NCBI GenBank assembly: GCA_964553015.1
Contig: CAZKJE010000002.1
Coordinates: 14,175 to 78,174 of the forward strand
DNA length: 64,000 nucleotides
DNA from: an uncultured Candidatus Saccharibacteria bacterium
Lineage (GTDB): Bacteria > Patescibacteriota > Minisyncoccia > Phycocordibacterales > UBA9973
Direction: 5' to 3'
In this document: positions 548 through 50,424 of the stretch, one piece after another
Position numbering within the stretch: the first letter of the stretch is position 1
How the letters are laid out: each line of letters opens with the position of its first letter
Program-made: the position numbers and the translations under genes
Notes under the pieces: model-generated
Databases searched by the model: none
Seen by the model: only the letters and a program-made list of their open reading frames with translations
What the model was told of the DNA's origin: nothing

Positions 548-2140
548 GTGGCTTTTGCCAAAATATACTCAGCGCAAGTAAATTTACTTACCGGAGCTAT
601 CGTAACTATAGAAGTGGATCTCTCCCGAGGCCTGCATTCTTTTAGTGTCGTCGGCCTGCCGGACAAAGCAGTCGATGAATCTAAAGACAGGGTATCGGGC
701 GCGATAAAGAATTCCGGTTTCCAGTCCCCGAAGGCAAAAAATCAAAAAATAATTGTTTCTCTTTCACCGGCCGACTTAAAGAAAGAGGGGCCATTTTTTG
801 ATTTAGGAATTGCCATCTCGTACATGAAAGCAGCGGGAGATATTAAATTTGATTCCGAGAAAAAAATATTTTTAGGCGAGCTAGGCTTGGACGGCACACT
901 TCGCCCTATCCGCGGAGCTTTGCCTTTGGCGCAGGAAGCCAGACGGAAAGGATTTGAAGAAATATATCTGCCGAAAGAAAATGCCTCCGAGGCGGCCTTG
1001 GTGGAAGGTATTAAAATTTTTGGCGCTGAAAGTTTGCAGGAAGTCGTGGAGCATATCGATGAGTATAAAAGACCCCCTCTGTCCGATAAAAATAGGACAT
1101 CTCCCCCTTCGCAGGGGGCGAGGAATAAAATTCCGGTCCAGCCGCAGACAAAAGTAAATTACAAAAAAGAAACAAAGGGCGCAGACTTTTCTGATATTCG
1201 CGGACAGGAAGGCGCCAAGCGCGGGCTCGAGATCGCGGCCGCCGGCGGGCATAATATAGCGATGTATGGCCCGCCCGGCACAGGCAAGACGATGCTGGCC
1301 CGGGCTTTTTCGCAATTGTTGCCGGATCTGCCAATTGATGAAGTACTTGAGCTCACGGGAATACATTCTGTGTCCGGCAGCACGCAAGGGGAGCTTGTGT
1401 GCTTTCCCCCGTTTCGCGCCCCGCACCACACTTCTTCTTATGTTTCTATTATCGGCGGGGGAACGTATCCAAAGCCAGGAGAGGTTACACTCGCGCATCG
1501 CGGCGTTTTATTTCTAGACGAGTTTCCGGAATTTGAGAAGAGGGTTATAGAATCTTTACGGCAGCCGCTTGAAGACAATATCGTTTCCATTTCCCGCGCC
1601 AAGGGCACAGCAGTCTTCCCTTCAAATTTTATTTTAGTGGCCGCCATGAATCCCTGCCCGTGCGGAAACGCTGGGAACAAACAAAAGGCCTGCATCTGCA
1701 AGCCGTCCGATTTAGACAGATATAAAAGGAAACTTTCCGGTCCGATTATAGACCGTATTGACCTCTGGGTTTCAGTCGGCAACGTGGATTATAAAAAACT
1801 CGGCGCAAGTGACGATGAGCGGAACGCAGAGAAAAGTGAAAAAATAAAAGATAGAGTTACCCTAGCCAGAGAAATTCAAAAAAAGAGATTTCAAAAATTT
1901 ACAAAAAAAATCAGCACAAACAGTGAAATGAATGTGAAAGACTTAGGCACGATGGCAAAACTCGATGCAAAAGTTCGCGAACTCTTAGACAACAGTGCCG
2001 AAAATCTAGGCCTGTCCGCTCGCGCCTATCACCGCGTAATAAAAATAGCCCGCACTATTGCCGACTTGGAAAATTCTGAAAACGTAGAAGCGAATCATAT
2101 CTTAGAGGCCATTCAATATAGGCCAAAAGTTAACTCATAG
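548..2140 (+). CDS. comM: YifB/ComM-family Mg-chelatase-like AAA+ ATPase
   Basis: 530 aa. Walker A GPPGTGKT, Walker B LFLDEFPEF, and a ChlI-like C-terminal region ending ANHILEAIQYR. GTG start. Contains a GC-rich palindromic insert at 1101..1122. Confidence 0.85.
   Translation: MAFAKIYSAQVNLLTGAIVTIEVDLSRGLHSFSVVGLPDKAVDESKDRVSGAIKNSGFQSPKAKNQKIIVSLSPADLKKEGPFFDLGIAISYMKAAGDIKFDSEKKIFLGELGLDGTLRPIRGALPLAQEARRKGFEEIYLPKENASEAALVEGIKIFGAESLQEVVEHIDEYKRPPLSDKNRTSPPSQGARNKIPVQPQTKVNYKKETKGADFSDIRGQEGAKRGLEIAAAGGHNIAMYGPPGTGKTMLARAFSQLLPDLPIDEVLELTGIHSVSGSTQGELVCFPPFRAPHHTSSYVSIIGGGTYPKPGEVTLAHRGVLFLDEFPEFEKRVIESLRQPLEDNIVSISRAKGTAVFPSNFILVAAMNPCPCGNAGNKQKACICKPSDLDRYKRKLSGPIIDRIDLWVSVGNVDYKKLGASDDERNAEKSEKIKDRVTLAREIQKKRFQKFTKKISTNSEMNVKDLGTMAKLDAKVRELLDNSAENLGLSARAYHRVIKIARTIADLENSENVEANHILEAIQYRPKVNS
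1101..1122. repeat. GC-rich palindromic element, in frame in comM
   Basis: CTCCCCC-TTCGCA-GGGGGCGAG. The CCCCC/GGGGG stem and TTCGCA loop match the recG copy at 49493..49514. Encodes SPPSQGA. Confidence 0.6.
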
Positions 2141-2189: not shown

Positions 2190-2203
2190 AATTAAGTCGC
2201 AAA

Positions 2204-2253
2204 TACCCCTACCCGGCCTCTCCCTAAAGTAGGGGGAGGAGAAAGGAGGGGGT
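2204..2253 (+). repeat. GC-rich palindromic element in the 5' UTR of the SOS-controlled transcript
   Basis: CCTCTCCCT-AAAGT-AGGGGGAGG with an outer ACCCCT/AGGGGGT pairing. The core resembles part of the 40714..40852 element. Confidence 0.55.
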
Positions 2254-2278
2254 AAATTATAAAATTAAAAACAAAGCT

Positions 2279-5248: not shown

Positions 5249-5854
5249 CTAGTTTTCCTGTTTTGACCCTGGAGTTTTGGATTTGGTGACTATTTCGTCT
5301 ATTATTCCGTACTTCTGCGCCTCTTGCGCATCCATGAAGAAGTCCCTCTCCACGTCTTTTTCAATCTGGGTGAGGGATTTGCCGGTATTTTTTGCCAAAA
5401 GTTTGTTTAAATTATCTCTGGTCTTTAAAATATGCTTTGCCGTGATTGCAATATCGGTGGCTTGGCCTTCCACTCCGCCCAAGGGCTGGTGGATCATGAT
5501 CTCGGCGTTCGGCAAAATATAGCGCTTGCCACGCTTACCGGAAGACATGATGATAGCGGCGCCTGAAGCAGCGAGGCCGACACAGAAGGTAGAAATATCC
5601 GGACGGACATGATTCATGGTGTCCACTATGGCCATAGTAGAAGTCACCGATCCGCCCGGAGAATTTATATAAAGATGAATATCTTTTTTAGCATCTTCGG
5701 ATTCTAGAAATAGAAGCTGGGCGATGACGATATTTGCGGTGTTGTCGTCAATCGGTCCGGCTAAAAAGACTATCCGCTCGCGCAAAAGGCGGGAATATAT
5801 GTCGTAAGCGCGTTCTCCAAATTGCGATTTTTCTATTACTGTTGGTATTAACAT
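5249..5854 (-). CDS. clpP: ATP-dependent Clp protease proteolytic subunit
   Basis: 201 aa. ClpP family throughout ([29 protein letters not shown]). Confidence 0.95.
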
Positions 5855-6275: not shown

Positions 6276-7523
6276 GTGTCTAATGAAATACGTAAAAATA
6301 TGCCAAGAAAAATGATAAGTGTAGAAGGCAACATAGTAAATAAAGATAAAGTTTTCCGCGGAAGAATTGAAATTGATCAGAGCGGAATGATAGATAAAAT
6401 CGGCGAACCGAAAGGTGACGCCGATTTTATTTTTGAGGATGAATTAATTTTTCCCGGATTCATAGATCTGCATGTGCATGCGCGGGAAGATGCAAGCCAC
6501 ACGCAAGATTACAAAGAAGATTTTATCTCCTCGGGAGTTGCGGCGATAAGCGGCGGAGTGACAGCATTTGCAGAAATGCCGAACAATCCAGTACCGCCGA
6601 TTGATGATAAAAGTTACGCAGAAAAAAAAGAATTAACTAAGAAATCTCCAGTTCCAGTTTTACTTTATGCAGGCATCGGCCCTAAGACAAAACCGCTTTC
6701 ATCAAAAGTTCCGTACAAAGTTTTTATGGGTAAATCTGTCGGCGATCTTTTTTTTACAACACTGGAAGAATTAGAATCAGTAATAAAAAATTACAAGGGA
6801 CAATACGTGAGTTTCCACTGCGAGGATCCGGAAATTCTGGAAGAAAAAACTCATGAGTTAACTCATGAGTTACAGCGCCCCAGAGAAGCTGAAATTTCCG
6901 GAATAGATTTCGCGCTCAAATTAATAGAAAAATATAATATTTTTGGAAAAATTTGTCATGTATCTACGATAGGAGGAATACAAAAAATTATTGAAGCAAA
7001 AAAAAGAGGGGTAAATGTAACAGTAGAAGTAACTCCGCATCATTTGTATTTTGCGAAAGCAAATAAAAATTTACAAGTCAATCCGCCCATACGTGATGTA
7101 GAAGATTGTGCGGCTTTAATAAAACTTTTGAAACGAGGCGATATTGATTTTCTTGCTACCGACCATGCTCCGCACACAAAAGAAGAGAAGAAAAAAGGAG
7201 TTTCAGGCATGCCGCATTTAGATACTTACGGACCGTTTATCGCATGGCTTATAAAAGAACACGGTTTTACGCAGGAAGAAATTGCGAGAGTATGCGCATA
7301 TAATCCGGGTGTTTTTTTAAATAGTTTTATGCCTGAGAAATATGGAGAAACAAAAGAAGGCTACGTTGGCTCGCTTACAGTAATAAATATGAACAAGCCA
7401 GTAAGGATAAAAAAAGAAATGCTTAAAACGAAATGCGGCTGGTCGCCTTTTCTGGGGGTGACATTTCCGGGAAGCGTTACTATGACAATAGTAAAAGGAG
7501 AAATTTATGAAAACAGAAAATAG
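6276..7523 (+). CDS. pyrC: Dihydroorotase
   Basis: 415 aa. Amidohydrolase metal motifs DLHVHAR and ATDHAPH. First gene of the pyr cluster. The start is uncertain (GTG 6276 per track, or an internal ATG). Confidence 0.85.
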   Translation: MSNEIRKNMPRKMISVEGNIVNKDKVFRGRIEIDQSGMIDKIGEPKGDADFIFEDELIFPGFIDLHVHAREDASHTQDYKEDFISSGVAAISGGVTAFAEMPNNPVPPIDDKSYAEKKELTKKSPVPVLLYAGIGPKTKPLSSKVPYKVFMGKSVGDLFFTTLEELESVIKNYKGQYVSFHCEDPEILEEKTHELTHELQRPREAEISGIDFALKLIEKYNIFGKICHVSTIGGIQKIIEAKKRGVNVTVEVTPHHLYFAKANKNLQVNPPIRDVEDCAALIKLLKRGDIDFLATDHAPHTKEEKKKGVSGMPHLDTYGPFIAWLIKEHGFTQEEIARVCAYNPGVFLNSFMPEKYGETKEGYVGSLTVINMNKPVRIKKEMLKTKCGWSPFLGVTFPGSVTMTIVKGEIYENRK

Positions 7524-8565
7524 AACAGCAAAATTAATTCTGAAAGACGGTACTATTTTTGAGGCAAAAAGTTTCGGCGCTTCAAAATCTACTGCCGGCG
7601 AAGTGGTTTTTGCCACGGGAATGACCGGCTATCCCGAAGCGCTGACAGATCCATCCTTCAAGGGACAAATTTTAGTAATGACATATCCCTTGATCGGGAA
7701 TTATGGAGTTCCTAAAAAAGAAGACTGGGAATCGGACAAGATCCAAGTTTCCGGGCTTGTAGTGTGTAATTACATAGATACGCCGTCGCATCATGCAAGC
7801 GAGATGACTTTGGCCGAGTGGTTCAAAAAAGAAGGCGTGCCACTTCTTGAGATAAAAGACACAAGGCTGCTTACAGAAAAATTACGGGACGAGGGGGCAA
7901 CACTAGGCAAAATAATTATTGGAAGCAAAAATGTTAATTTTGCAGATCCGAATTTGAGAAACTTGGCTGGAGAAGTGAGTACGAAAGAAATTTATTTTAT
8001 GGGCGAGGGAAAAGATACGATTGTGCTTTTGGATTGTGGCGCCAAGAGGAATATAATTAGAAGCCTTGCAGAAAGAGGGCTTAGGGTTGCAGTAGTTCCG
8101 TGGAATACCGATGTAACCAAATTAGATTTTCAATTTAGCGCGGTAGTGATTTCAAACGGCCCCGGAGATCCAAAGAAAGTAACCGCTACTATCAATAATG
8201 TTAAAAAAATTATTGCTAAAAAAATCCCTACGCTGGGTATTTGTTTGGGAAACCAAATTTTAACTTTAGCCATGGGAGGCACAACGTATAAAATGAAATT
8301 CGGGCACCGAAGCCAGAATCAGCCAGTAGTGCAAACGGGTACAAATAAGTGTTATTTAACAACCCAAAATCATGGTTTTGCAGTTAAACAAATTCCCAAA
8401 AATTTCAGACAATGGTTTCATAATGCGAACGATAATACGAATGAGGGAGTTATTCATGAGACCCTGCCATTTATGTCTGTGCAGTTTCATCCGGAAAGTA
8501 CTCCGGGACCCGTGGACACTGATTGGGTATTTGATTATTTTTTGAAAAAAGCTGATGAAAAATAA
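7507..8565 (+). CDS. carA: Carbamoyl-phosphate synthase small (glutaminase) subunit
   Basis: 352 aa. GATase class I triad context (LGICLGNQ, VQFHPE). Overlaps pyrC and carB ends, suggesting translational coupling. Confidence 0.95.
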   Translation: MKTENRTAKLILKDGTIFEAKSFGASKSTAGEVVFATGMTGYPEALTDPSFKGQILVMTYPLIGNYGVPKKEDWESDKIQVSGLVVCNYIDTPSHHASEMTLAEWFKKEGVPLLEIKDTRLLTEKLRDEGATLGKIIIGSKNVNFADPNLRNLAGEVSTKEIYFMGEGKDTIVLLDCGAKRNIIRSLAERGLRVAVVPWNTDVTKLDFQFSAVVISNGPGDPKKVTATINNVKKIIAKKIPTLGICLGNQILTLAMGGTTYKMKFGHRSQNQPVVQTGTNKCYLTTQNHGFAVKQIPKNFRQWFHNANDNTNEGVIHETLPFMSVQFHPESTPGPVDTDWVFDYFLKKADEK

Positions 8566-39070: not shown

Positions 39071-39145
39071 TTGATATTAGTAGCAAAATAGACTTATGAA
39101 ACTACAAGAAGGATAATAGCGTAACTAAACCATAAAGTCAATTTG

Positions 39146-39535
39146 TGGAGATGGGGGAAATTGAATCCCCGTGCAGAAGGTTTTTGCAAAGAAGTCTACA
39201 TGCGTAGCGCGCTTTTTGTTTTAAATTAAAAAATTATGAAACGCGCCAAATATTTTTTAACCGAGTTCTTTTGTTTTGCGAGAGCGTCAGAACAGGCGTT
39301 CAAGCTATCCCGATAATGTTATGCCTCGTCTTATATATCGGAAGTCTATAAGAGAGACACCACCTCAGGCTTACGCGAAAGATGGAGCGAAAGCGAGCGC
39401 ATTACCGAAGTAAGGCGAACGCATTGCTGTGAAAGCTGATTTTGCAATTAGCTGTTGAACGAATTTTTACGAGATTACGTTCATTCTCGGCATGCATCAA
39501 TAACAAATGGCCAACTGTCTATGCCTTGCATCCCC
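39146..39535 (-). ncRNA. ssrA: tmRNA (SsrA)
   Basis: The 5' GGGGATG pairs with the 3' CATCTCC, including the G3:U pair. T-arm GGGGA-TTCAATT-TCCCC, discriminator A, and CCA not encoded. Immediately downstream of smpB. The candidate tag frame ends ...GNALAFAPSFA-TAA, but the resume codon was not determined. Confidence 0.85.
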
Positions 39536-40129: not shown

Positions 40130-40642
40130 ATGAAAAATATAGAGAACGCGGGGCGTCTTTCCGAGGAAAAAGCTCAAAAGGAAGCCAAAGCAATTCAAGG
40201 TATGTCAGAGTTTAGGTCTTACGAGGAAGGCTACAAGAATCCAACAGCAGAACATTATGAAAAATCCTCAAAACATTTGGATAATCTAAAAGGGATAAGT
40301 TCTAAAGTTGCAGAGCTTTTTATAGAAGCAGCCGGACTAGGAAAGGATTTGAGAGATGAAATGGGTCCTGAAACACATAGGATATTTGAAATAGCCCAAA
40401 GAGATATTGTCCAACGCCTCAGATTAGAGGGTCTTTTTCTAAGATTGGGTAGTGAAGATCCAGAAGAAGAAAAAGAGAATATGGATTATATTCTTTCCAG
40501 ATGGGACAATGAGATTCGTTCAGATGAACGCATTAAGGATGTTTTCTTAGGGAAAGAGGAATTACTTAATAGGACAATAGAGTTTACTAAAAAGCACACC
40601 TTTCAACTTCTTGCTGGTATTAAGATAGAGATAGGAGAGTAA
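40130..40642 (+). CDS. Hypothetical cytoplasmic protein
   Basis: 170 aa. Helical and charged, with no recognised family. Confidence 0.5.
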   Translation: MKNIENAGRLSEEKAQKEAKAIQGMSEFRSYEEGYKNPTAEHYEKSSKHLDNLKGISSKVAELFIEAAGLGKDLRDEMGPETHRIFEIAQRDIVQRLRLEGLFLRLGSEDPEEEKENMDYILSRWDNEIRSDERIKDVFLGKEELLNRTIEFTKKHTFQLLAGIKIEIGE

Positions 40643-40713
40643 TATAAAAATTTTATAATTAAATCTCGCTTTTCGGTGTAATGAGACATAACTTTATATT
40701 AACATAGATTTTT

Positions 40714-40852
40714 ATTCCCCTCTTGAGGGGTGGCTCGCGTGCAAGACGGGGTGGATAATTTACCTCACCCTGCTGCCCTCTCCTGTAAAGGGGAGGGGAA
40801 AATTCATCCACCTCCCTCCGACCCATGTCGGAGTACTCCTCAAGAGGAGAAT
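40714..40852. mobile_element. MITE-like GC-rich element with terminal inverted repeats
   Basis: The left end ATTCCCCTCTTGAGGGGT and the reverse complement of the right end (ATTCTCCTCTTGAGGAGT) match at 16 of 18 positions. T-runs flank the element. The interior holds further hairpins (CCCTCTCC-TGTAAA-GGGGAGGG and CTCCGAC-CCAT-GTCGGAG). It is non-coding. Confidence 0.5.
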
Positions 40853-40926
40853 TTTTTACTCATATACTACTCTAATCCTATAAATAAGGGTTTTTTGACT
40901 TTGCTAGCAACAAAGTGTAAAAATGC

Positions 40927-43323: not shown

Positions 43324-43998
43324 ATGGCGAGAAAACAAGATAAACAAAGCGTTTTGGCTATGCGCAAGAGAGGAATGAGCTACAGCCAGATCAAAGGGAA
43401 AATAAAAATAAGCAAAAGCACTTTGAGTGTCTGGCTTAAAGATTTACCACTCGATGAAAAACGGATAAGAGAATTAAGAGACAATAGCCCTATTCGTATT
43501 GAAAAATTCAGAAATACAATGCGAGCAAAAAAAGAGATGAGACTTTATGAGGTATATAAAAAAGTCGCAAATGATATTTGTGATCTCTCAAAAAGAGATT
43601 TATTTTTAACAGGCTTGTTCTTATATTGGGGAGAAGGCACGAAATCACAAAATTCTTTAGTTGCCCTCACAAATACAAATCCAGCCATGGTTAAGTTTTT
43701 CATACAATGGCTAAAATTGTTTGGAGTAAAAAGCAAAGATTTGAAAATTAAACTACATTTATACTCCGATATGAAAATTAAAGAAAGTCTTGATTTTTGG
43801 TCAAAAGAGCTTAATATTCCGATAAGCCAGTTTTATAAGCCGTATGTTAAGAAAAATACTCTCAAATCTATCTCGTATAAAAATGGCTTTGGAAAAGGAA
43901 CATGTAGTGTTATATTTGGGAGTAGAGATCTTTGGGAATATATAACAATGGGATTGAAATATATTTCTGAAATTAGTAATGAAAATTTCCGCCCCTAG
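43324..43998 (+). CDS. HTH plus LAGLIDADG-like (homing-endonuclease-like) protein
   Basis: 224 aa. N-terminal resolvase-type HTH (RGMSYSQIKGKIKISKSTLSVWLK). A single LAGLIDADG-like motif (LTGLFLYWGEGTK). The last 10 nt, including the TAG stop, lie inside the tRNA gene. Confidence 0.45.
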   Translation: MARKQDKQSVLAMRKRGMSYSQIKGKIKISKSTLSVWLKDLPLDEKRIRELRDNSPIRIEKFRNTMRAKKEMRLYEVYKKVANDICDLSKRDLFLTGLFLYWGEGTKSQNSLVALTNTNPAMVKFFIQWLKLFGVKSKDLKIKLHLYSDMKIKESLDFWSKELNIPISQFYKPYVKKNTLKSISYKNGFGKGTCSVIFGSRDLWEYITMGLKYISEISNENFRP

Positions 43999-44061
43999 CT
44001 CAGTTGGTAGAGCAATCCGCTTATACCGGATCGGTCCTTGGTTCGAGTCCAAGGGGGCGGA
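43989..44061 (+). tRNA. tRNA-Ile with anticodon UAU
   Basis: Cloverleaf read by hand: acceptor CCGCCCC/GGGGCGG, D-arm GCTC-AGTTGGTA-GAGC, anticodon arm ATCCG-CTTATAC-CGGAT, variable loop CGGTC, T-arm CTTGG-TTCGAGT-CCAAG, discriminator A. CCA is not encoded. Confidence 0.8.
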
Positions 44062-44063
44062 CA

Positions 44064-44624
44064 ATGAAAGATAATTTGAACGAAAAATTAATTTCTGTTC
44101 CCCAACCACCCGTATTCCATACCTCAAGCCGTTTTTTATACGACGAATGGGTGCGCCTGAGTAAGCGTCTGGAAATAGAAGAGTTAAACGAAGAGGAGCG
44201 TGTTATAATAGAACAAAAGAGATCTGCGCTATTTAAAGAATATGAAGTTGCGTCTAATCGTGAGCAAGCCGAACCCGAAGCCATAGGCTTAGAATTTCTA
44301 GAAAACTTGAAATACGCTATTAAACAGAAAGACAAAGCTTTGTTACGAAAAACAATCCTTATGATTCAAGAGTTTGTTAATCGCCCTAACTTTTATAAAG
44401 ATTTAGATTTTATCAGATTTGCTGATGATGAATTAGATAAGATTTTAAATAATCGAATTGCCGCTATTATTGTCGGATCAGGTACTTATGGTCAAAGAAT
44501 TTTGATTTCTTCCAGCCGCTTGCGCATGAGCGGAGATAGACACGGACAGGAGTATAGAAACCGTTTTGCTAAACTTTTCGGTCTCAAATTCGATCCTAAC
44601 ATTGATTTAAGTATTGAATTTTAA
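44064..44624 (+). CDS. Hypothetical protein
   Basis: Start moved to ATG 44064, 3 nt after the tRNA, because the track start lies inside the tRNA. 186 aa with no recognised family. Confidence 0.5.
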   Translation: MKDNLNEKLISVPQPPVFHTSSRFLYDEWVRLSKRLEIEELNEEERVIIEQKRSALFKEYEVASNREQAEPEAIGLEFLENLKYAIKQKDKALLRKTILMIQEFVNRPNFYKDLDFIRFADDELDKILNNRIAAIIVGSGTYGQRILISSSRLRMSGDRHGQEYRNRFAKLFGLKFDPNIDLSIEF

Positions 44625-47749: not shown

Positions 47750-49957
47750 TTACTCGAAGTGAAACTCTCCGGCTTTGGTGCGGACTTTTTGTTTTAGGAG
47801 AGGATATTTACTTAGTTCGGGGTCAGATTCTATCATGCTAATAGCTTCAGTTCTAGCCGCTTCTACCATTTTTATATTTTTTATAGCTTCCATGCCGAGA
47901 TCAGTGATGCCCCACTGCTTTGTACCGCCAAGCTCTCCGGCGCCTCGGAGTGTGAGATCTAGCTCTGCCAATTCAAAACCATTTTTTGCAGTCTTGAGCG
48001 CTTTAAGGCGGTCTACGGTTTTTGCGCTTTTGGCTTCAGCAAAAATATAACAATATGCCTGATGCGAACTTCGGATCACCCGTCCGCGGAGCTGATGCAA
48101 TTGGGCCAATCCAAAACGCTCCGCACCTTCTATGATAATTATTGTCGCATTTGGAACATTCACTCCGACTTCTACCACGGACGTAGCGCATAAGATATGT
48201 ATCTTGCCTTCGGTAAATTCCTGCATTACCTCTTCTTTTTTTTCTCTGCTCATCTTGGAATGAAGTACGCCTATTTCATACTCTTTGAACACTCGCTCTT
48301 TTAATATTTTAGCTTCAGCTACGGCAGATTTTACATTTAAAGCCATTTCTTTTTCAGGATCAGGCTCAAAAATTCGCGGGCAGATGACGTAGAGCTGTCT
48401 ACCGGCCTCCAATTCTTTTCTGATTGCTTCGTAAGTGTTAGTCCTCTTGTCCGGAGTAATAATCTCTGTAATTATTTGTTTTCTTCCTACCGGCATTTCG
48501 TCTAAAAGCGACAGATCCAAATCTCCGTATATCGTGAGCGCGAGCGTGCGGGGGATAGGAGTTGCGGTCATGGATAGCAGGTGCGGAGCGATGTTATCTT
48601 TGCGCACTAACTTTCTTCTTTGTGCTGTGCCGAAGCGATGCTGTTCGTCTATCACCACAAGTGCAAGATTTTTAAATTTAACAGTTTTTTGAATGAGCGC
48701 ATGTGTACCGATAAGTATAGGTATCTCGCCGTTTCCGATCCATTTCAAAAGTTGTGCTCGGGAAATTGTTGTCCAGCTTGCCCCGTCCTTGGCGGGACCG
48801 ATTGTTTTTGATGGAAATTTTCTGCAGCCACTTCCAGTGATCAAGCCTATGTTTATCGGCAAATGCTTGAAATATTCTATGAAAGATTCAAAATGTTGCG
48901 TTGCTAATATTTCTGTCGGCGCCATGTATGCCACTTGCAAATTACCAAAATTTTGTGGTTTACCCTGGGTGTAATCGAAGGGCCTTTGCTGTACTGTCAC
49001 ATAGCTTGCAGTCGCAGCTACAGCAGTTTTACCGGAGCCGACATCGCCTTCGAGTAATCGCGACATCGGAAAATTCTTTGCCAGATCAGCAAGTATCGTT
49101 GCGATGGATTTTTCTTGTGATTTTGTCGGTTTAAAAGGGAAGCGCTTCAGAAATTCTTCTGCACTTTTCTTTTCAGGTTTTATTTGAAAAGATTTATTTT
49201 TTCTATATTCAAATTTATCATGCTGGCGTTCCAGCTGAATACAGAATACTTCTTCAAAAGCGAATCGTTTGCGTGCCGACTGCGCATCGGCTTTATTTTT
49301 CGGTTTGTGTATCCAAATAAGCGCGGTTTTCAGAGTAGGCAAATGATATTTTTTTAAAATTTCGGCCGGAATATAATCTTCAATATTATCCAAAGTTTTT
49401 TCTTTAAATATTTTTTCAATTGCGTGGTAAAACCATTTGGAAGTGATACCTCGCGTCTCCGCATAAATTGGATAAGACAGACCCTCCCCCAACCCCTCCC
49501 TTCGCAGGGCGGGGCTTTTAAATAATGTGTCGTGCGAATCTATCGGCATATTCGGCAATTTTTCAAATTCCGGATTAGCAAGATACATGCCATTTTTGCC
49601 TTGCGTGACTTTGCCCGTCAGCTTCACATTTTCGCCGTCATGGATCATTTTTGCCAAGTAAGTCTGATTGAACCATGTGATTTTTATTTTTCCAGATAAA
49701 TCTTCTATTTCGCCTTCGCCCATGGGCATTTTTGAACGAAATCCTTTTTTGGTTTTCAATTTTGAAACTTTGCCATATACAGTAGCCATATCTCCGGCAA
49801 CTAATTCAGCAATATTCTTTACCTCGCTGATATCGCTGTAGCGGACAGGGAAGTGAAACAAGAGATCAGCCACAGAAAAAATCTTGAGCTTATGCAAAGC
49901 CCTTTTCTGGCTTTCATCCAGCCTGAATTTTAGTTCAAGCTTATCGCTTAAATTCAT
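47750..49957 (-). CDS. recG: ATP-dependent DNA helicase RecG
   Basis: Start moved to ATG 49957, because the track extension overlaps the pilin gene. Wedge domain and helicase motifs GDVGSGKT and VIDEQHRFG. Contains an in-frame GC element at 49481..49516. Confidence 0.9.
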   Translation of the reverse strand: MNLSDKLELKFRLDESQKRALHKLKIFSVADLLFHFPVRYSDISEVKNIAELVAGDMATVYGKVSKLKTKKGFRSKMPMGEGEIEDLSGKIKITWFNQTYLAKMIHDGENVKLTGKVTQGKNGMYLANPEFEKLPNMPIDSHDTLFKSPALRREGLGEGLSYPIYAETRGITSKWFYHAIEKIFKEKTLDNIEDYIPAEILKKYHLPTLKTALIWIHKPKNKADAQSARKRFAFEEVFCIQLERQHDKFEYRKNKSFQIKPEKKSAEEFLKRFPFKPTKSQEKSIATILADLAKNFPMSRLLEGDVGSGKTAVAATASYVTVQQRPFDYTQGKPQNFGNLQVAYMAPTEILATQHFESFIEYFKHLPINIGLITGSGCRKFPSKTIGPAKDGASWTTISRAQLLKWIGNGEIPILIGTHALIQKTVKFKNLALVVIDEQHRFGTAQRRKLVRKDNIAPHLLSMTATPIPRTLALTIYGDLDLSLLDEMPVGRKQIITEIITPDKRTNTYEAIRKELEAGRQLYVICPRIFEPDPEKEMALNVKSAVAEAKILKERVFKEYEIGVLHSKMSREKKEEVMQEFTEGKIHILCATSVVEVGVNVPNATIIIIEGAERFGLAQLHQLRGRVIRSSHQAYCYIFAEAKSAKTVDRLKALKTAKNGFELAELDLTLRGAGELGGTKQWGITDLGMEAIKNIKMVEAARTEAISMIESDPELSKYPLLKQKVRTKAGEFHFE
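49481..49516. repeat. GC-rich palindromic element, in frame in recG, opposite orientation to the carB copy
   Basis: CCCCTCCC-TTCGCA-GGGCGGGG (49493..49514) with a CCCTCCCCCAA leader. Read on the minus strand as SPALRREGLGEGL. Confidence 0.7.
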
Positions 49958-49971
49958 AAAACCATTATACC

Positions 49972-50424
49972 CTATCTGGTCAGTGTAATAGATTGGCCAA
50001 GTTCCGCATTTGGAGCGGCTATAGTGTAGCGGCCATTTGAATCCACTAATACAGTGTATTGCGTGTCTGCCGCTGTTCCCGCAGTCAATCCAGCTCCGCC
50101 GGGGTCCATAGGAATTACTGAAGGAATATATGTAGGTACCAGGCAGCTCAAGTCCATATTCCCTGCGCCGGTTCCAATATTTTCGGCAGTGGAAGTTATG
50201 GTAACGCCGGCACAAGTAAATATACCTTTGTTATCGGCAAGATTTTGCCCGATTGCATTTAAAATAGTCTCGACGTTGCTAATGCGTTGGCTGTTTCTCG
50301 CCTGCGCAAACTGACGAGCGGGATTTATAGCTACTACCACGATAGATGCCAATATCGCGATAATACCGATCACAACTAAAATTTCAATAAGCGTGAAACC
50401 TCTTTTCCTCGCAACTTTTTTCAT
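49972..50424 (-). CDS. pilA: Type IV major-pilin-like protein
   Basis: 150 aa. Classic prepilin N-terminus KRG/FTLIEILVVIGIIAILASIVV and a C-terminal Cys pair. Confidence 0.85.
   Translation of the reverse strand: MKKVARKRGFTLIEILVVIGIIAILASIVVVAINPARQFAQARNSQRISNVETILNAIGQNLADNKGIFTCAGVTITSTAENIGTGAGNMDLSCLVPTYIPSVIPMDPGGAGLTAGTAADTQYTVLVDSNGRYTIAAPNAELGQSITLTR

Follow-up and report, generated by a model that had tools for sequence, protein, structure and literature searches.

The recG gene of a Nomurabacteria genome carries, in frame and without a stop codon, a GC-rich element of about 34 bases (74% GC, in a host genome of 41.6% GC), and the question is what kind of DNA this is and how it came to be accepted within a coding sequence. 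The window, meaning the whole stretch of 64,000 nucleotides that was analysed, has the plus-strand letters GACCCTCCCCCAACCCCTCCCTTCGCAGGGCGGGGCT at 49480-49516, and the RecG peptide read across them is FKSPALRREGLGEGLSYPIY; the element itself contributes SPALRREGLGEG, then (L). The first-pass annotation had described a palindromic element with relatives in carB and comM, lying between the wedge region and the helicase core of RecG. The location is borne out by Pfam, which assigns the wedge to aa 14-135 and the DEAD domain to aa 278-472, so that the element peptide at aa 146-165 is inter-domain. An AlphaFold model of the N-terminal 329 aa of RecG was poor (mean pLDDT 52.6, residues 137-201 below 50) and was not used as a sign of disorder; it shows no more than that the insert comes after the final strand of the wedge OB-fold, a part modelled with confidence. 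The peptides SPALRREGLGEGLSYPIYAETR and ALNPTSPNPPLGR are candidate markers for translation of the element in metaproteomes.

The recG element is more than a palindrome. A C-block is joined by a G-block complementary to it and by a further G-block that mirrors the first one, and this arrangement defines the BoxC/PIT/TM intrastrand-triplex repeats (Holder et al., 2015, PMC4666352). The mirror block, which places the element in this class, had been missed earlier. According to the ITxF criteria (Holder et al., 2015) the second of three consecutive blocks is the Watson-Crick complement of the first and the third mirrors the second, with stems of 6-15 nt, at most one mismatch and short loops. The recG copy reads CCCCGCCC-TGCGAA-GGGAGGGG-TTG-GGGGAGGG on the minus strand at 49482-49514, with one mismatch in the Watson-Crick stem and none in the mirror stem. 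A finder for three such blocks (Watson-Crick and mirror, at most one mismatch each) returned six sites in the window, namely recG, carB, tig (two sites) and two intergenic copies, and no site in 30 shuffles of the window in which the composition was kept within 40-nt blocks. The family is dispersed and over-represented relative to scrambled sequence, as is characteristic of the triplex-motif class. In the E. coli sequences used as positive controls the layout is the same, and the blocks, CCCTCACCC-TAA-CCCTCTCCC...GGGAGAGGG, are nearly identical. The repeat described here is of the same kind as the enterobacterial BoxC/PIT/TM repeats, and from its letters it might form an intrastrand triplex.

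The strict TMECO consensus of Holder et al. (2015), CCCTCNCCC N3-6 GGGNGAGGG N3 GGGNGAGGG, is matched by the E. coli controls and by nothing in the window or in 80 Nomurabacteria loci. When up to three substitutions are allowed, 40762-40797 in the window and five of the loci match, and the recG copy does not; an in-frame RecG copy in another genome (L056) is within three substitutions of the consensus. The Rfam covariance models gave only tmRNA and one tRNA in the window and nothing at 49380-49620. A repeat search of the window with default seeds missed the family, whose members are too short and too divergent for it.

Table 1. Copies of the three-block repeat in the window, with the parts of the recG copy.
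Feature	Positions	Strand	Composition	Detected by or context
recG host gene	47750-49957	minus	735-aa ORF	
recG copy	49480-49515	minus (RecG coding strand)		covariance model, three-block finder
recG C-block	49514-49507	minus	CCCCGCCC	
recG loop	49506-49501	minus	TGCGAA	
recG G-block	49500-49493	minus	GGGAGGGG	
recG spacer	49492-49491	minus	TT	
recG mirror G-block	49490-49482	minus	GGGGGAGGG, then TC	
carB copy	9410-9448	plus	CCTCTCCC (9414-9421), AA, CCCTCCCC (9424-9431), loop TTGGCA, GGGGAGGAG (9438-9446)	covariance model (33.3 bits), three-block finder
comM (YifB/ComM) copy, sub-type B	1072-1123	plus	C-block CCCCCTC (1073-1079), mini-hairpin TGTCC..GGACA (1080-1099), mirror C-block CTCCCCC (1101-1107), loop TTCGCA, G-block GGGGGCGAG (1114-1122)	
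trigger-factor (tig) copy	13247-13317	minus	full two-tier: CCACCCC AAA CCCCTCCCC AAGA GGGAGGGG ... GGGGGAAGAGG; nested second hairpin CCTTCCCC TTC GGGGAAGG	covariance model, three-block finder
intergenic full-length copy	2203-2254	plus	ACCCCTACCC GG CCTCTCCC TAAAGTA GGGGGAGG AGAAA GGAGGGGGT	downstream of comM
intergenic copy	40761-40799	plus	ACCTCACCC TGCTG CCCTCTCC TGTAAA GGGGAGGGG	upstream of ftsH

The window contains seven copies (Table 1), and four of these (recG, carB, comM and tig) are in frame within conserved genes that retain their full sets of Pfam domains. The tig copy and the two spacer copies had escaped the first-pass annotation. A single covariance model built from family copies recovers both the recG copy (41.6 bits, E = 5e-6) and the carB copy (33.3 bits, at 9410-9447); the two belong to one repeat family. 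Both matches are on the plus strand and the two genes lie on opposite strands. As DNA the two copies therefore point the same way, the carB copy being read C-block first, and the earlier statement on opposite-strand reading of the recG copy is correct. In CarB the element is a clean 30-nt insertion at 9419-9448 that adds ten residues, PNPPLGRGGA, at a turn of the ATP-grasp domain, and alignment to the solved structures of human CPS1 and E. coli CarB shows a 10-residue gap at this place.

The proposed likeness between the recG and comM copies holds in part. The 12-mer CCCTTCGCAGGG of the recG copy is found unchanged in the comM copy at 1105-1116, but the comM copy is a related variant of a separate sub-type, in which an additional mini-hairpin separates the two C-blocks. 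Its peptide, RPPLSDKNRTSPPSQGAR, lies in the linker from the ChlI N-domain to the AAA+ domain, and that of the tig copy, ATPPQTPPQEGGAPSPSGKAGEE, in the linker joining the N and C domains of trigger factor. A third exact match to CCCTTCGCAGGG, at 12198 in pyrB, was rejected as a copy; it is the conserved ATCase motif HPSQGLLD with the catalytic HPSQ, and there is no indel relative to solved ATCases. The intergenic copy at 2203-2254 has stop codons in its loop and a fold z of -3.4. The one upstream of ftsH lies inside a cluster of GC-hairpins at about 40700-40870; an empty orthologous site for it was not located, the upstream ORF having no homologue in 80 loci.

Applied to 81 Nomurabacteria loci (1.4 Mb), the covariance model (R1) gave 42 hits, corresponding to about 30 elements; five of these lie in the window. 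The exact recG-type pattern is found in at least 120 metagenome contigs and 117 IMG/VR contigs; many of these viral and metagenome matches come from high-GC contigs. As ORF calls are unreliable on such contigs, intragenic examples were drawn solely from contigs below 47% GC, and these added in-frame copies in IleRS, LpxK, a TadA-like deaminase, TsaB/D and a glycosyltransferase. All intragenic copies are situated in inter-domain linkers or surface turns, and those in RecG, ComM, Tig and FtsK lie between Pfam domains. In the literature, no paper was found on BoxC-like elements in CPR genomes or inside genes.

The RecG orthologues show what the site looks like without the element. In 43 of 81 Nomurabacteria RecG genes there is a plain AT-rich linker of 33 nt, unrelated to the element; the remaining linkers hold at least five types of insert, in both orientations. 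The element displaces the middle of this ancestral linker, which follows the wedge OB-fold, and is not a simple addition to it. T. maritima RecG (1GM5) has no counterpart of the element peptide. Judged from this alignment, which the first-pass annotation had called for, the element is lineage-specific and not a conserved feature of RecG. The comM sub-type (B) also fills the RecG linker in five of the loci (L008, L032, L042, L061 and L071), and composites of B and A form inverted pairs there. Related copies have entered the same RecG linker several times in related genomes: the carriers are monophyletic in none of 100 bootstrap NJ trees of RecG, and type B requires five state changes on the RecG tree in all 100 replicates. 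When the loci are ranked by flank similarity, carriers take ranks 1, 7 and 26 of 80. The closest relative, represented by one 156-kb JGI contig and with proteins 88-91% identical, lacks the element in RecG, ComM and Tig alike, and the ComM and Tig linkers show the same patchy presence as the RecG linker.

One repeat family thus gives open peptide in both orientations, as had been noted, and two explanations had been offered for this. The first, selection for stop-free translation in several frames, is not supported and not needed. When the recG copy is shuffled at constant base composition, 28% of the shuffled sequences are open in all six frames and 70% in at least five; base composition alone is sufficient to account for the open frames. 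The second, repeated filtering of insertions, is supported, since intergenic copies have on average 3.5 stop-free frames against 4.8 for the intragenic ones (Mann-Whitney p = 0.008). The stops of the intergenic copies are located in the loops. The peptides differ with orientation and frame, as illustrated by SPNPPLGRGG and REGLGEGL.

The recG feature is probably a translated and tolerated in-frame copy of a dispersed, GC-rich, three-block repeat that recurs at the DNA level. The unit of this repeat combines a block of pyrimidines with the Watson-Crick complement of that block and a mirror of one of the two. About 32 nt of the element have replaced the central 20 nt or so of the fast-evolving RecG linker, and the product is most likely translated as the Pro/Gly/charged loop SPALRREGLGEG. 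This loop would be tolerated because the site is a flexible inter-domain linker, where the element may simply be a passenger. The family spreads or recurs at the DNA level. Purifying selection would clear harmful copies, and those seen are either intergenic or sit at linkers and surface turns of otherwise conserved proteins, where both orientations and more than one reading frame are represented. The spread might take place by site-preferring insertion, or by short-patch recombination of an element-bearing allele among related genomes. Some observations fit this explanation less well. The element does not show the decay expected of a neutral passenger in a fast-evolving linker, linker DNA has been replaced and not simply extended, no transposase was seen in the window and no target-site duplication at the carB junction, and the recG copy fails the strict E. 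coli TMECO consensus.

The conservation of the element was unexpected. The G-blocks, which span six codons, are identical in six genomes, although the synonymous codon identity of the flanks is 0.44; this requires either that the element spread after the genes had diverged, or that its DNA or RNA is itself subject to selection or conversion. Between genomes with flanks of 76-82% identity, element copies at the RecG site are 82-97% identical. At the same divergence the ancestral linker reaches about 57%, and only 0.4% of such pairs attain 82%. The invariant G-blocks point either to a recent spread or to DNA-level constraint.

Such constraint would be expected if the element functions as a nucleic acid within the coding region, with the G-rich strand, which in the recG copy is the mRNA-sense strand, forming a G-quadruplex, a triplex or a hairpin. 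The structure could then slow translation between folding domains, regulate RecG expression, or create a place where recombination or stalled replication diversifies the linker. Taken together, we regard these possibilities as unlikely. They would account for G-blocks that are fixed at synonymous positions in six genomes, for a conservation far above that of the replaced linker and for inserts at domain boundaries; moreover, GGGAGGGGTTGGGGGAGGG is a canonical G4 motif, and the only two in the 64 kb are in the recG and carB elements. TM repeats have also been tied to local genomic instability (Holder et al., 2015, PMC4666352). However, the element is absent from most RecG orthologues, and the central position of the C-block varies (T, G or A) while nothing elsewhere compensates, which means that neither hairpin nor triplex is preserved as a whole. 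The RecG site also takes unrelated palindromes in either orientation, meaning that no single strand-specific structure is required. The computed hairpin folds (-14 to -21 kcal/mol) are ordinary for their composition (z = -0.96 and -0.13); z-scores this near zero are uninformative, since sequences of the same composition all fold well. Finally, no promoter, terminator or polymerase effect of E. coli PIT elements was found in vivo, nor a triplex footprint (PMC4666352). A wider reading, possible but doubtful, is that BoxC-like repeats make up an unrecognised coding-compatible class of CPR and other low-GC genomes, which repeatedly and by preference enters the DNA of inter-domain linkers and is kept intact within genes, down to the synonymous sites of the G-blocks, by non-B structure. 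A G-quadruplex or triplex might in that case drive a homing- or conversion-like spread, or act, for example, in inter-domain translational pausing.

It is considerably less probable that the repeat belongs to the REP/REPIN type and is mobilised by a RAYT (an IS200/IS605-like tyrosine transposase), or that it is a tiny MITE served in trans by a transposase gene located elsewhere in the genome. The copies are short, imperfectly palindromic, dispersed and numerous, they vary in presence at orthologous sites, and they occur in inverted pairs both in the RecG B+A composites and in E. coli, all of which such elements would also show. Neither a Y1/RAYT nor a DDE transposase, nor any other sign of mobility, was found with Pfam among the 24 ORFs scanned in the window, a 64-kb part of the genome, where there is only a weak HTH match at 43324-43998. 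The stem aside, terminal inverted repeats are absent, and the carB junction, which the alignment fixes to the codon, shows only a repeated CT dinucleotide and no target-site duplication, so the two hallmarks of a MITE are lacking. The REP and MITE models furthermore give the mirror block no role, and TMECO repeats are not associated with mobile elements (Holder et al., 2015, PMC4666352). Convergence without a common family, through Pro/Gly linkers selected at the protein level or GC hairpins produced locally by slippage or template switching, is scarcely credible and largely refuted by the intergenic and opposite-orientation copies: every peptide is indeed Pro/Gly/charged and in a linker, and the first carB block partly reuses older Thr-Ser codons (ACCTCT), but the same nucleotide blocks recur between genes, in both orientations and in different frames with unrelated peptides, covariance-model E-values go down to 1e-6 with no hits in local shuffles, and near-identical blocks are found in E. 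coli spacers.

The genomes compared here offer what was lacking for E. coli, namely filled and empty orthologous sites in dozens of genomes and thereby a natural experiment on the origin and spread of such repeats. One linker has been hit many times and its inserts are conserved far above the neutral expectation. The mechanism can now be tested by population metagenomics and biophysics. The three-block architecture is present in the Candidate Phyla Radiation and, according to the metagenome scan, in many other low-GC genomes. Essential genes (RecG, CarB, trigger factor, ComM, FtsK, IleRS and LpxK) can harbour in-frame copies, much as they harbour RPEs in Rickettsia, and this makes the copies a source of lineage-specific peptide insertions in core proteins as well as a trap in annotation and alignment.

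Among known systems, REP and REPIN sequences are likewise short imperfect palindromes in many copies, sometimes as inverted doublets. Unlike the present elements they are extragenic, have no mirror block and carry a conserved 5' tetranucleotide recognised by RAYT. The GC clusters of yeast and other fungal mitochondria are also GC-rich palindromic mini-elements in an AT-rich genome and occasionally enter coding sequence (VAR1), but they are organellar, have other sequences and no three-block mirror architecture, and could serve as an analogy only. The Rickettsia palindromic elements (RPEs) of Ogata et al. (2000, 2002) are, in the summary of PMC10969869, about 100-150 bp long with a conserved peptide of about 30-50 aa. 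As there described, they are palindromic, lineage-specific, also intergenic, and inserted in frame in many unrelated housekeeping genes as extra surface peptides; the present elements share all this, including fold-compatible insertion in unrelated genes, with translation presumed. They differ from RPEs in being 33-52 nt (10-17 aa) and extremely GC-rich, in having a mirror block, in being read in both orientations and several frames, and in lacking a conserved peptide and any sequence relationship to the RPE family.

The closest system is the BoxC/PIT/TM-ECO repeats of E. coli and other proteobacteria (Bergler, 1992; Hoyne, Maher et al., 2000; Holder et al., 2015, PMC4666352), which have remained a puzzle for some thirty years, being strictly intergenic and having neither an assigned function nor a known way of moving. 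The blocks are in both cases 8-9 nt, arranged as a C-block, a loop of 3-7 nt, a G-block, a spacer of 2-5 nt and a mirror G-block, typically with one stem mismatch at a non-G/C position. Both are dispersed in many copies on either strand, with inverted pairs and local indel variability, and the block words CCTCACCC and CCCTCTCC are common to TMECO and some Nomurabacteria copies. The recG copy departs from TMECO in its blocks GGGAGGGG/GGGGGAGGG and its 2-nt spacer, and its host is a CPR bacterium and not a proteobacterium. The main difference is one of location. The TMECO copies of E. coli K-12 are 'always located intergenically' (Holder et al., 2015, PMC4666352), whereas the recG, carB, comM and tig copies are all in frame within genes; a repeat of the BoxC/triplex type, previously known only from between genes in E. 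coli, is here part of the coding sequence of Nomurabacteria recG.

Comparison with relatives indicates that the palindromic element in recG is an acquisition and not a feature of RecG. The plus strand at 49480-49516 reads GACCCTCCCCCAACCCCTCCCTTCGCAGGGCGGGGCT and has a GC content of 74% (41.6% for the window). The element's coding-strand sequence is CCCCGCCC-TGCGAA-GGGAGGGG-TT-GGGGGAGGG, and it is read as K-SPALRREGLGEGL-SYPIY (aa 146-165), immediately C-terminal of the wedge OB-fold. The host protein contains the complete set of Pfam domains (wedge, aa 14-135; DEAD, aa 278-472; Helicase_C; RecG_dom3_C) and can be aligned with T. maritima RecG (1GM5) over the full length. The coordinates, peptide and gene given for this copy in the first-pass annotation are correct, and its membership in a repeat family is confirmed.

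The copies have a common architecture, not remarked on in the first-pass annotation: two mirror-image C-rich blocks, a loop, and a G-rich block that is the complement of the second C-rich block. Intergenic copies of full length also possess an outer G-block, giving a two-tier palindrome. The kind found in recG and carB is referred to as type A; the comM sub-type, type B, has an extra mini-hairpin between the two C-blocks. A covariance model trained on 18 copies gave 42 hits in 1.4 Mb (the window and 80 Nomurabacteria loci), which correspond to about 30 different elements. The recG copy scored 41.6 bits (E = 5e-6) and the carB copy 33.3 bits on the same DNA strand. The recG and carB genes are encoded on opposite strands (minus and plus, respectively), so one element is read in both orientations, as had been proposed from the sequence alone. 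A three-block finder, which looks for a pyrimidine block, its Watson-Crick complement and the mirror of the complement with at most one mismatch each, matched exactly recG, carB, tig (twice) and two intergenic sites in the window; it gave zero matches in 30 shuffles that kept the composition within 40-nt blocks.

Element copies, RecG linker inserts and neighboring features (window positions unless a related locus is named)
Feature	Position	Strand	Remarks
recG ORF	47750-49957	minus	735 aa; encloses the element at 49480-49516
Type IV pilin-like gene	49972-50424	minus	N-terminal GFTLIEILVV motif; directly upstream of recG; the mechanical recG ORF extends through it, the true recG start being Met at 49957
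carB copy	9410-9448		hairpin scan and manual reading
Trigger factor (tig) copy	13247-13317	minus	hairpin scan and manual reading
Intergenic copy	2203-2254		spacer; hairpin scan and manual reading
Intergenic copy	40761-40799		spacer; hairpin scan and manual reading
comM copy	1072-1123		between ChlI N-domain and AAA+ domain
ftsH upstream spacer	40700-40870		several clustered GC-rich hairpins and partial elements besides the 40761 copy
ORF upstream of this spacer	40130-40642		170 aa; no Pfam hit, no homologue in 80 related loci
Diverged direct repeats	21668-22114		period ~303-324 nt, inside 936-aa ORF 19866-22676; probably represent tandem domains in a surface protein
tmRNA gene	39143-39535	minus	
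tRNA gene	43989-44061	plus	overlaps two ORFs: 43324-43998 (weak HTH hit) at the ORF end and 44004-44624 at the ORF start; either or both may therefore be spurious
RecG linker insert, window's type			G-block read first; window's own RecG, L003, L006, L010, also L321, L322
RecG linker insert, type B (comM sub-type)			RPPRxxGTPPSQGE
RecG linker insert, B+A composites			
RecG linker insert, type A read C-block first			TSPQPSPERRGS; L056, P0080, P0087
RecG linker inserts, unrelated palindromes	L013 10439-10516; L060 10439-10495; L021 10442-10531		at least two kinds (L013/L060; L021); lower GC; examples CAAAGGGTATCTTTGACAAGCTTGTCAAAGATACCCTTTG and a 70-nt AT-rich palindrome
Further in-frame three-block elements elsewhere in RecG	L033 6340-6407; L062 11722-11774		~aa 320 (L033); near C-terminal region (L062)

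Every intragenic copy examined is found in a linker or a turn. Aligned with human CPS1 and E. coli CarB, the CarB of the window has ten additional residues, PNPPLGRGGA (9419-9448), cleanly inserted at a turn in the ATP-grasp domain. At the site of the comM copy, relatives have a type B or type A element in ComM, or else just a linker resembling KKVVQKLLKK. The copy in trigger factor occupies the linker that joins the N domain to the C domain and is common to many relatives; the four closest have a His/Glu-rich linker in its place. The closest RecG, ComM, and Tig (88-91% identity) are all found in one genome (a 156-kb JGI contig), where all three are without the element. Hosts in other contigs include FtsK, IleRS, a ComF-like protein, LpxK, a TadA-like deaminase, TsaB/D, and a glycosyltransferase.

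The 12-mer CCCTTCGCAGGG has exact matches at 1105, 12198, and 49498. The one in pyrB (12198-12209) was rejected as a copy, since it codes for HPSQ, the catalytic motif of ATCase within the conserved HPSQGLLD, and shows no indel relative to solved structures. Its frame, P-S-Q-G, is that of the comM element, and the match is judged to be a coincidence, though an improbable one. The pyrB gene belongs to a pyrimidine-synthesis cluster (pyrC-like amidohydrolase, carA, carB, pyrB; 6276-12720) between clpP (5249-5854) and tig (12722-13810). On the contig of the closest relative clpP adjoins tig, so the cluster, whose carB already bears the element, was either gained in the window genome or lost in the relative.

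The RecG site was aligned in 120 database homologues (81-88% identical) and in 80 loci from named Nomurabacteria/Paceibacterota MAGs. The recG gene is intact in 81 of 81 cases (window and loci), and 43 of these have an AT-rich 33-nt linker at the site, e.g., KKEGADNSGFS, which is the fastest-evolving part of recG (mean pairwise identity 0.55 vs. 0.71 in the flanks). In the window recG about 20 nt of linker are exchanged for about 32 nt of element between the common ends AAAA... and ...GGTCTNTCT; the event was thus a replacement and not a pure addition. The linker is a general hot spot for palindromic insertions.

RecG trees were built by NJ with 100 bootstrap replicates from 707 columns outside the linker. 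The four type A carriers are monophyletic in 0/100, and the smallest split holding all four has a median of 41 taxa. Fitch parsimony gives four changes for type A in 79% of the replicates and at least two in 100%, five changes for type B in 100%, and for B+A four changes in 74%, three in 25%, and two in 1%. As the ancestral linker cannot be recreated by deletion, each change represents a gain or an allele replacement; on this gene tree, with its short internal branches, recombination between genomes is inseparable from independent insertion.

The tolerance of the element within genes had been ascribed either to selection for stop-free translation in several frames or to repeated filtering of insertions. 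Six-frame translation of the recG, carB, and tig copies reveals no stop in any frame. All six frames are open in 4% of random 38-mers from the window and in 24-28% of same-composition shuffles, about 65-70% of which have at least five open frames. Base composition is thus sufficient, and multi-frame selection is not needed. The filtering part holds: intergenic copies have fewer open frames than the intragenic ones (mean 3.5 vs. 4.8, p = 0.008), and their stops are located in the loops (TAAAGTA, TGTAAA, TTAACAA). CPR genomes are compact with a small non-coding share; once the RecG hot spot is set aside, roughly half of the copies are intergenic, more than would be expected for such a genome.

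A neutral passenger in the RecG linker should diverge fast, which the element does not do. Between genomes with 76-82% identical flanks, RecG-site copies are 82-97% identical, and only 0.4% of comparable non-carrier pairs reach 82% linker identity. All six G-block codons (AGG GAG GGG ... GGG GAG GGT) are shared by the four genomes of one comparison, and five (GAG GGG ... GGG GAG GGT) by six of six genomes, L322 having AAG for AGG. Conserved degenerate residues in the flanks have a codon identity of 0.44, which gives P ~0.007 per pair. Variation, with no compensating changes, is seen in the spacer, in the loop, and at the centre of the C-block. Same-site copies from different genomes are more alike than the recG and carB copies of the window genome (28/37 positions by hand alignment), which argues against homogenisation within the genome. 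The conservation points either to an element-bearing allele that spread later than the genes diverged or to the G-rich strand being constrained. Canonical G-quadruplex motifs (four G runs, each of three or more) occur just twice in the 64-kb window, at 49482-49500 and 9409-9431 (minus strand); these sites correspond to the G-rich strand of the recG element and of the carB element, respectively. In recG the motif falls on the mRNA-sense strand. Given the conservation, the element might also be functional or drive-like.

The exact recG-type pattern is widespread, with 117 stretches in IMG/VR and at least 120 in metagenomes, at loci with a GC content of 27-76%; copies on low-GC contigs are mainly between genes. 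Nothing pointed to a mobilising function: the 24 window ORFs scanned include no RAYT or DDE transposase, the carB junction has no target-site duplication, and no Rfam family matches the element. The favored account is that a BoxC-like non-B-DNA repeat family arises or spreads via a repair- or recombination-linked route. Copies would then persist only where they are harmless, in spacers and in linker-coding DNA, and in the latter they would be translated.

A composite query has matches in 5390 of 5426 complete E. coli genomes, at a median of nine places each, all unannotated and intergenic. The yjdP-phnP spacer contains CCCTCACCC-TAA-CCCTCTCCCC-AAA-GGGGCGAGGGG, and the hrpB-mrcB spacer CCCTCTCCC-TGT-GGGAGAGGG-CCG-GGGTGAGGG. 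The layout, and often the block words too, are those of the Nomurabacteria copies, e.g., at window position 40762 (ACCTCACCC..CCCTCTCC..GGGGAGGGG). These E. coli repeats were identified as BoxC, also called PIT or TM-ECO, with the consensus CCCTCNCCC N3-6 GGGNGAGGG N3 GGGNGAGGG (Holder et al., 2015, PMC4666352). E. coli K-12 has 23 copies, "always located intergenically," and 3610 copies are counted across 262 proteobacterial genomes (Holder et al., 2015). The same study reports neither promoter nor terminator activity, finds the repeats unlinked to mobile elements, and describes an association with local sequence instability.

By the three-block finder the recG copy belongs to the BoxC/PIT/TM class, while it departs from the strict E. 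coli consensus; several copies in relatives, including the in-frame RecG copy of L056, are within three substitutions of that consensus. A literature search found no published report of a BoxC-type architecture in CPR bacteria and in frame in core genes. The Nomurabacteria element resembles the Rickettsia palindromic elements in being in frame within core genes. It has a BoxC/PIT/TM architecture in a CPR lineage, with a Rickettsia-like in-frame placement in such genes.
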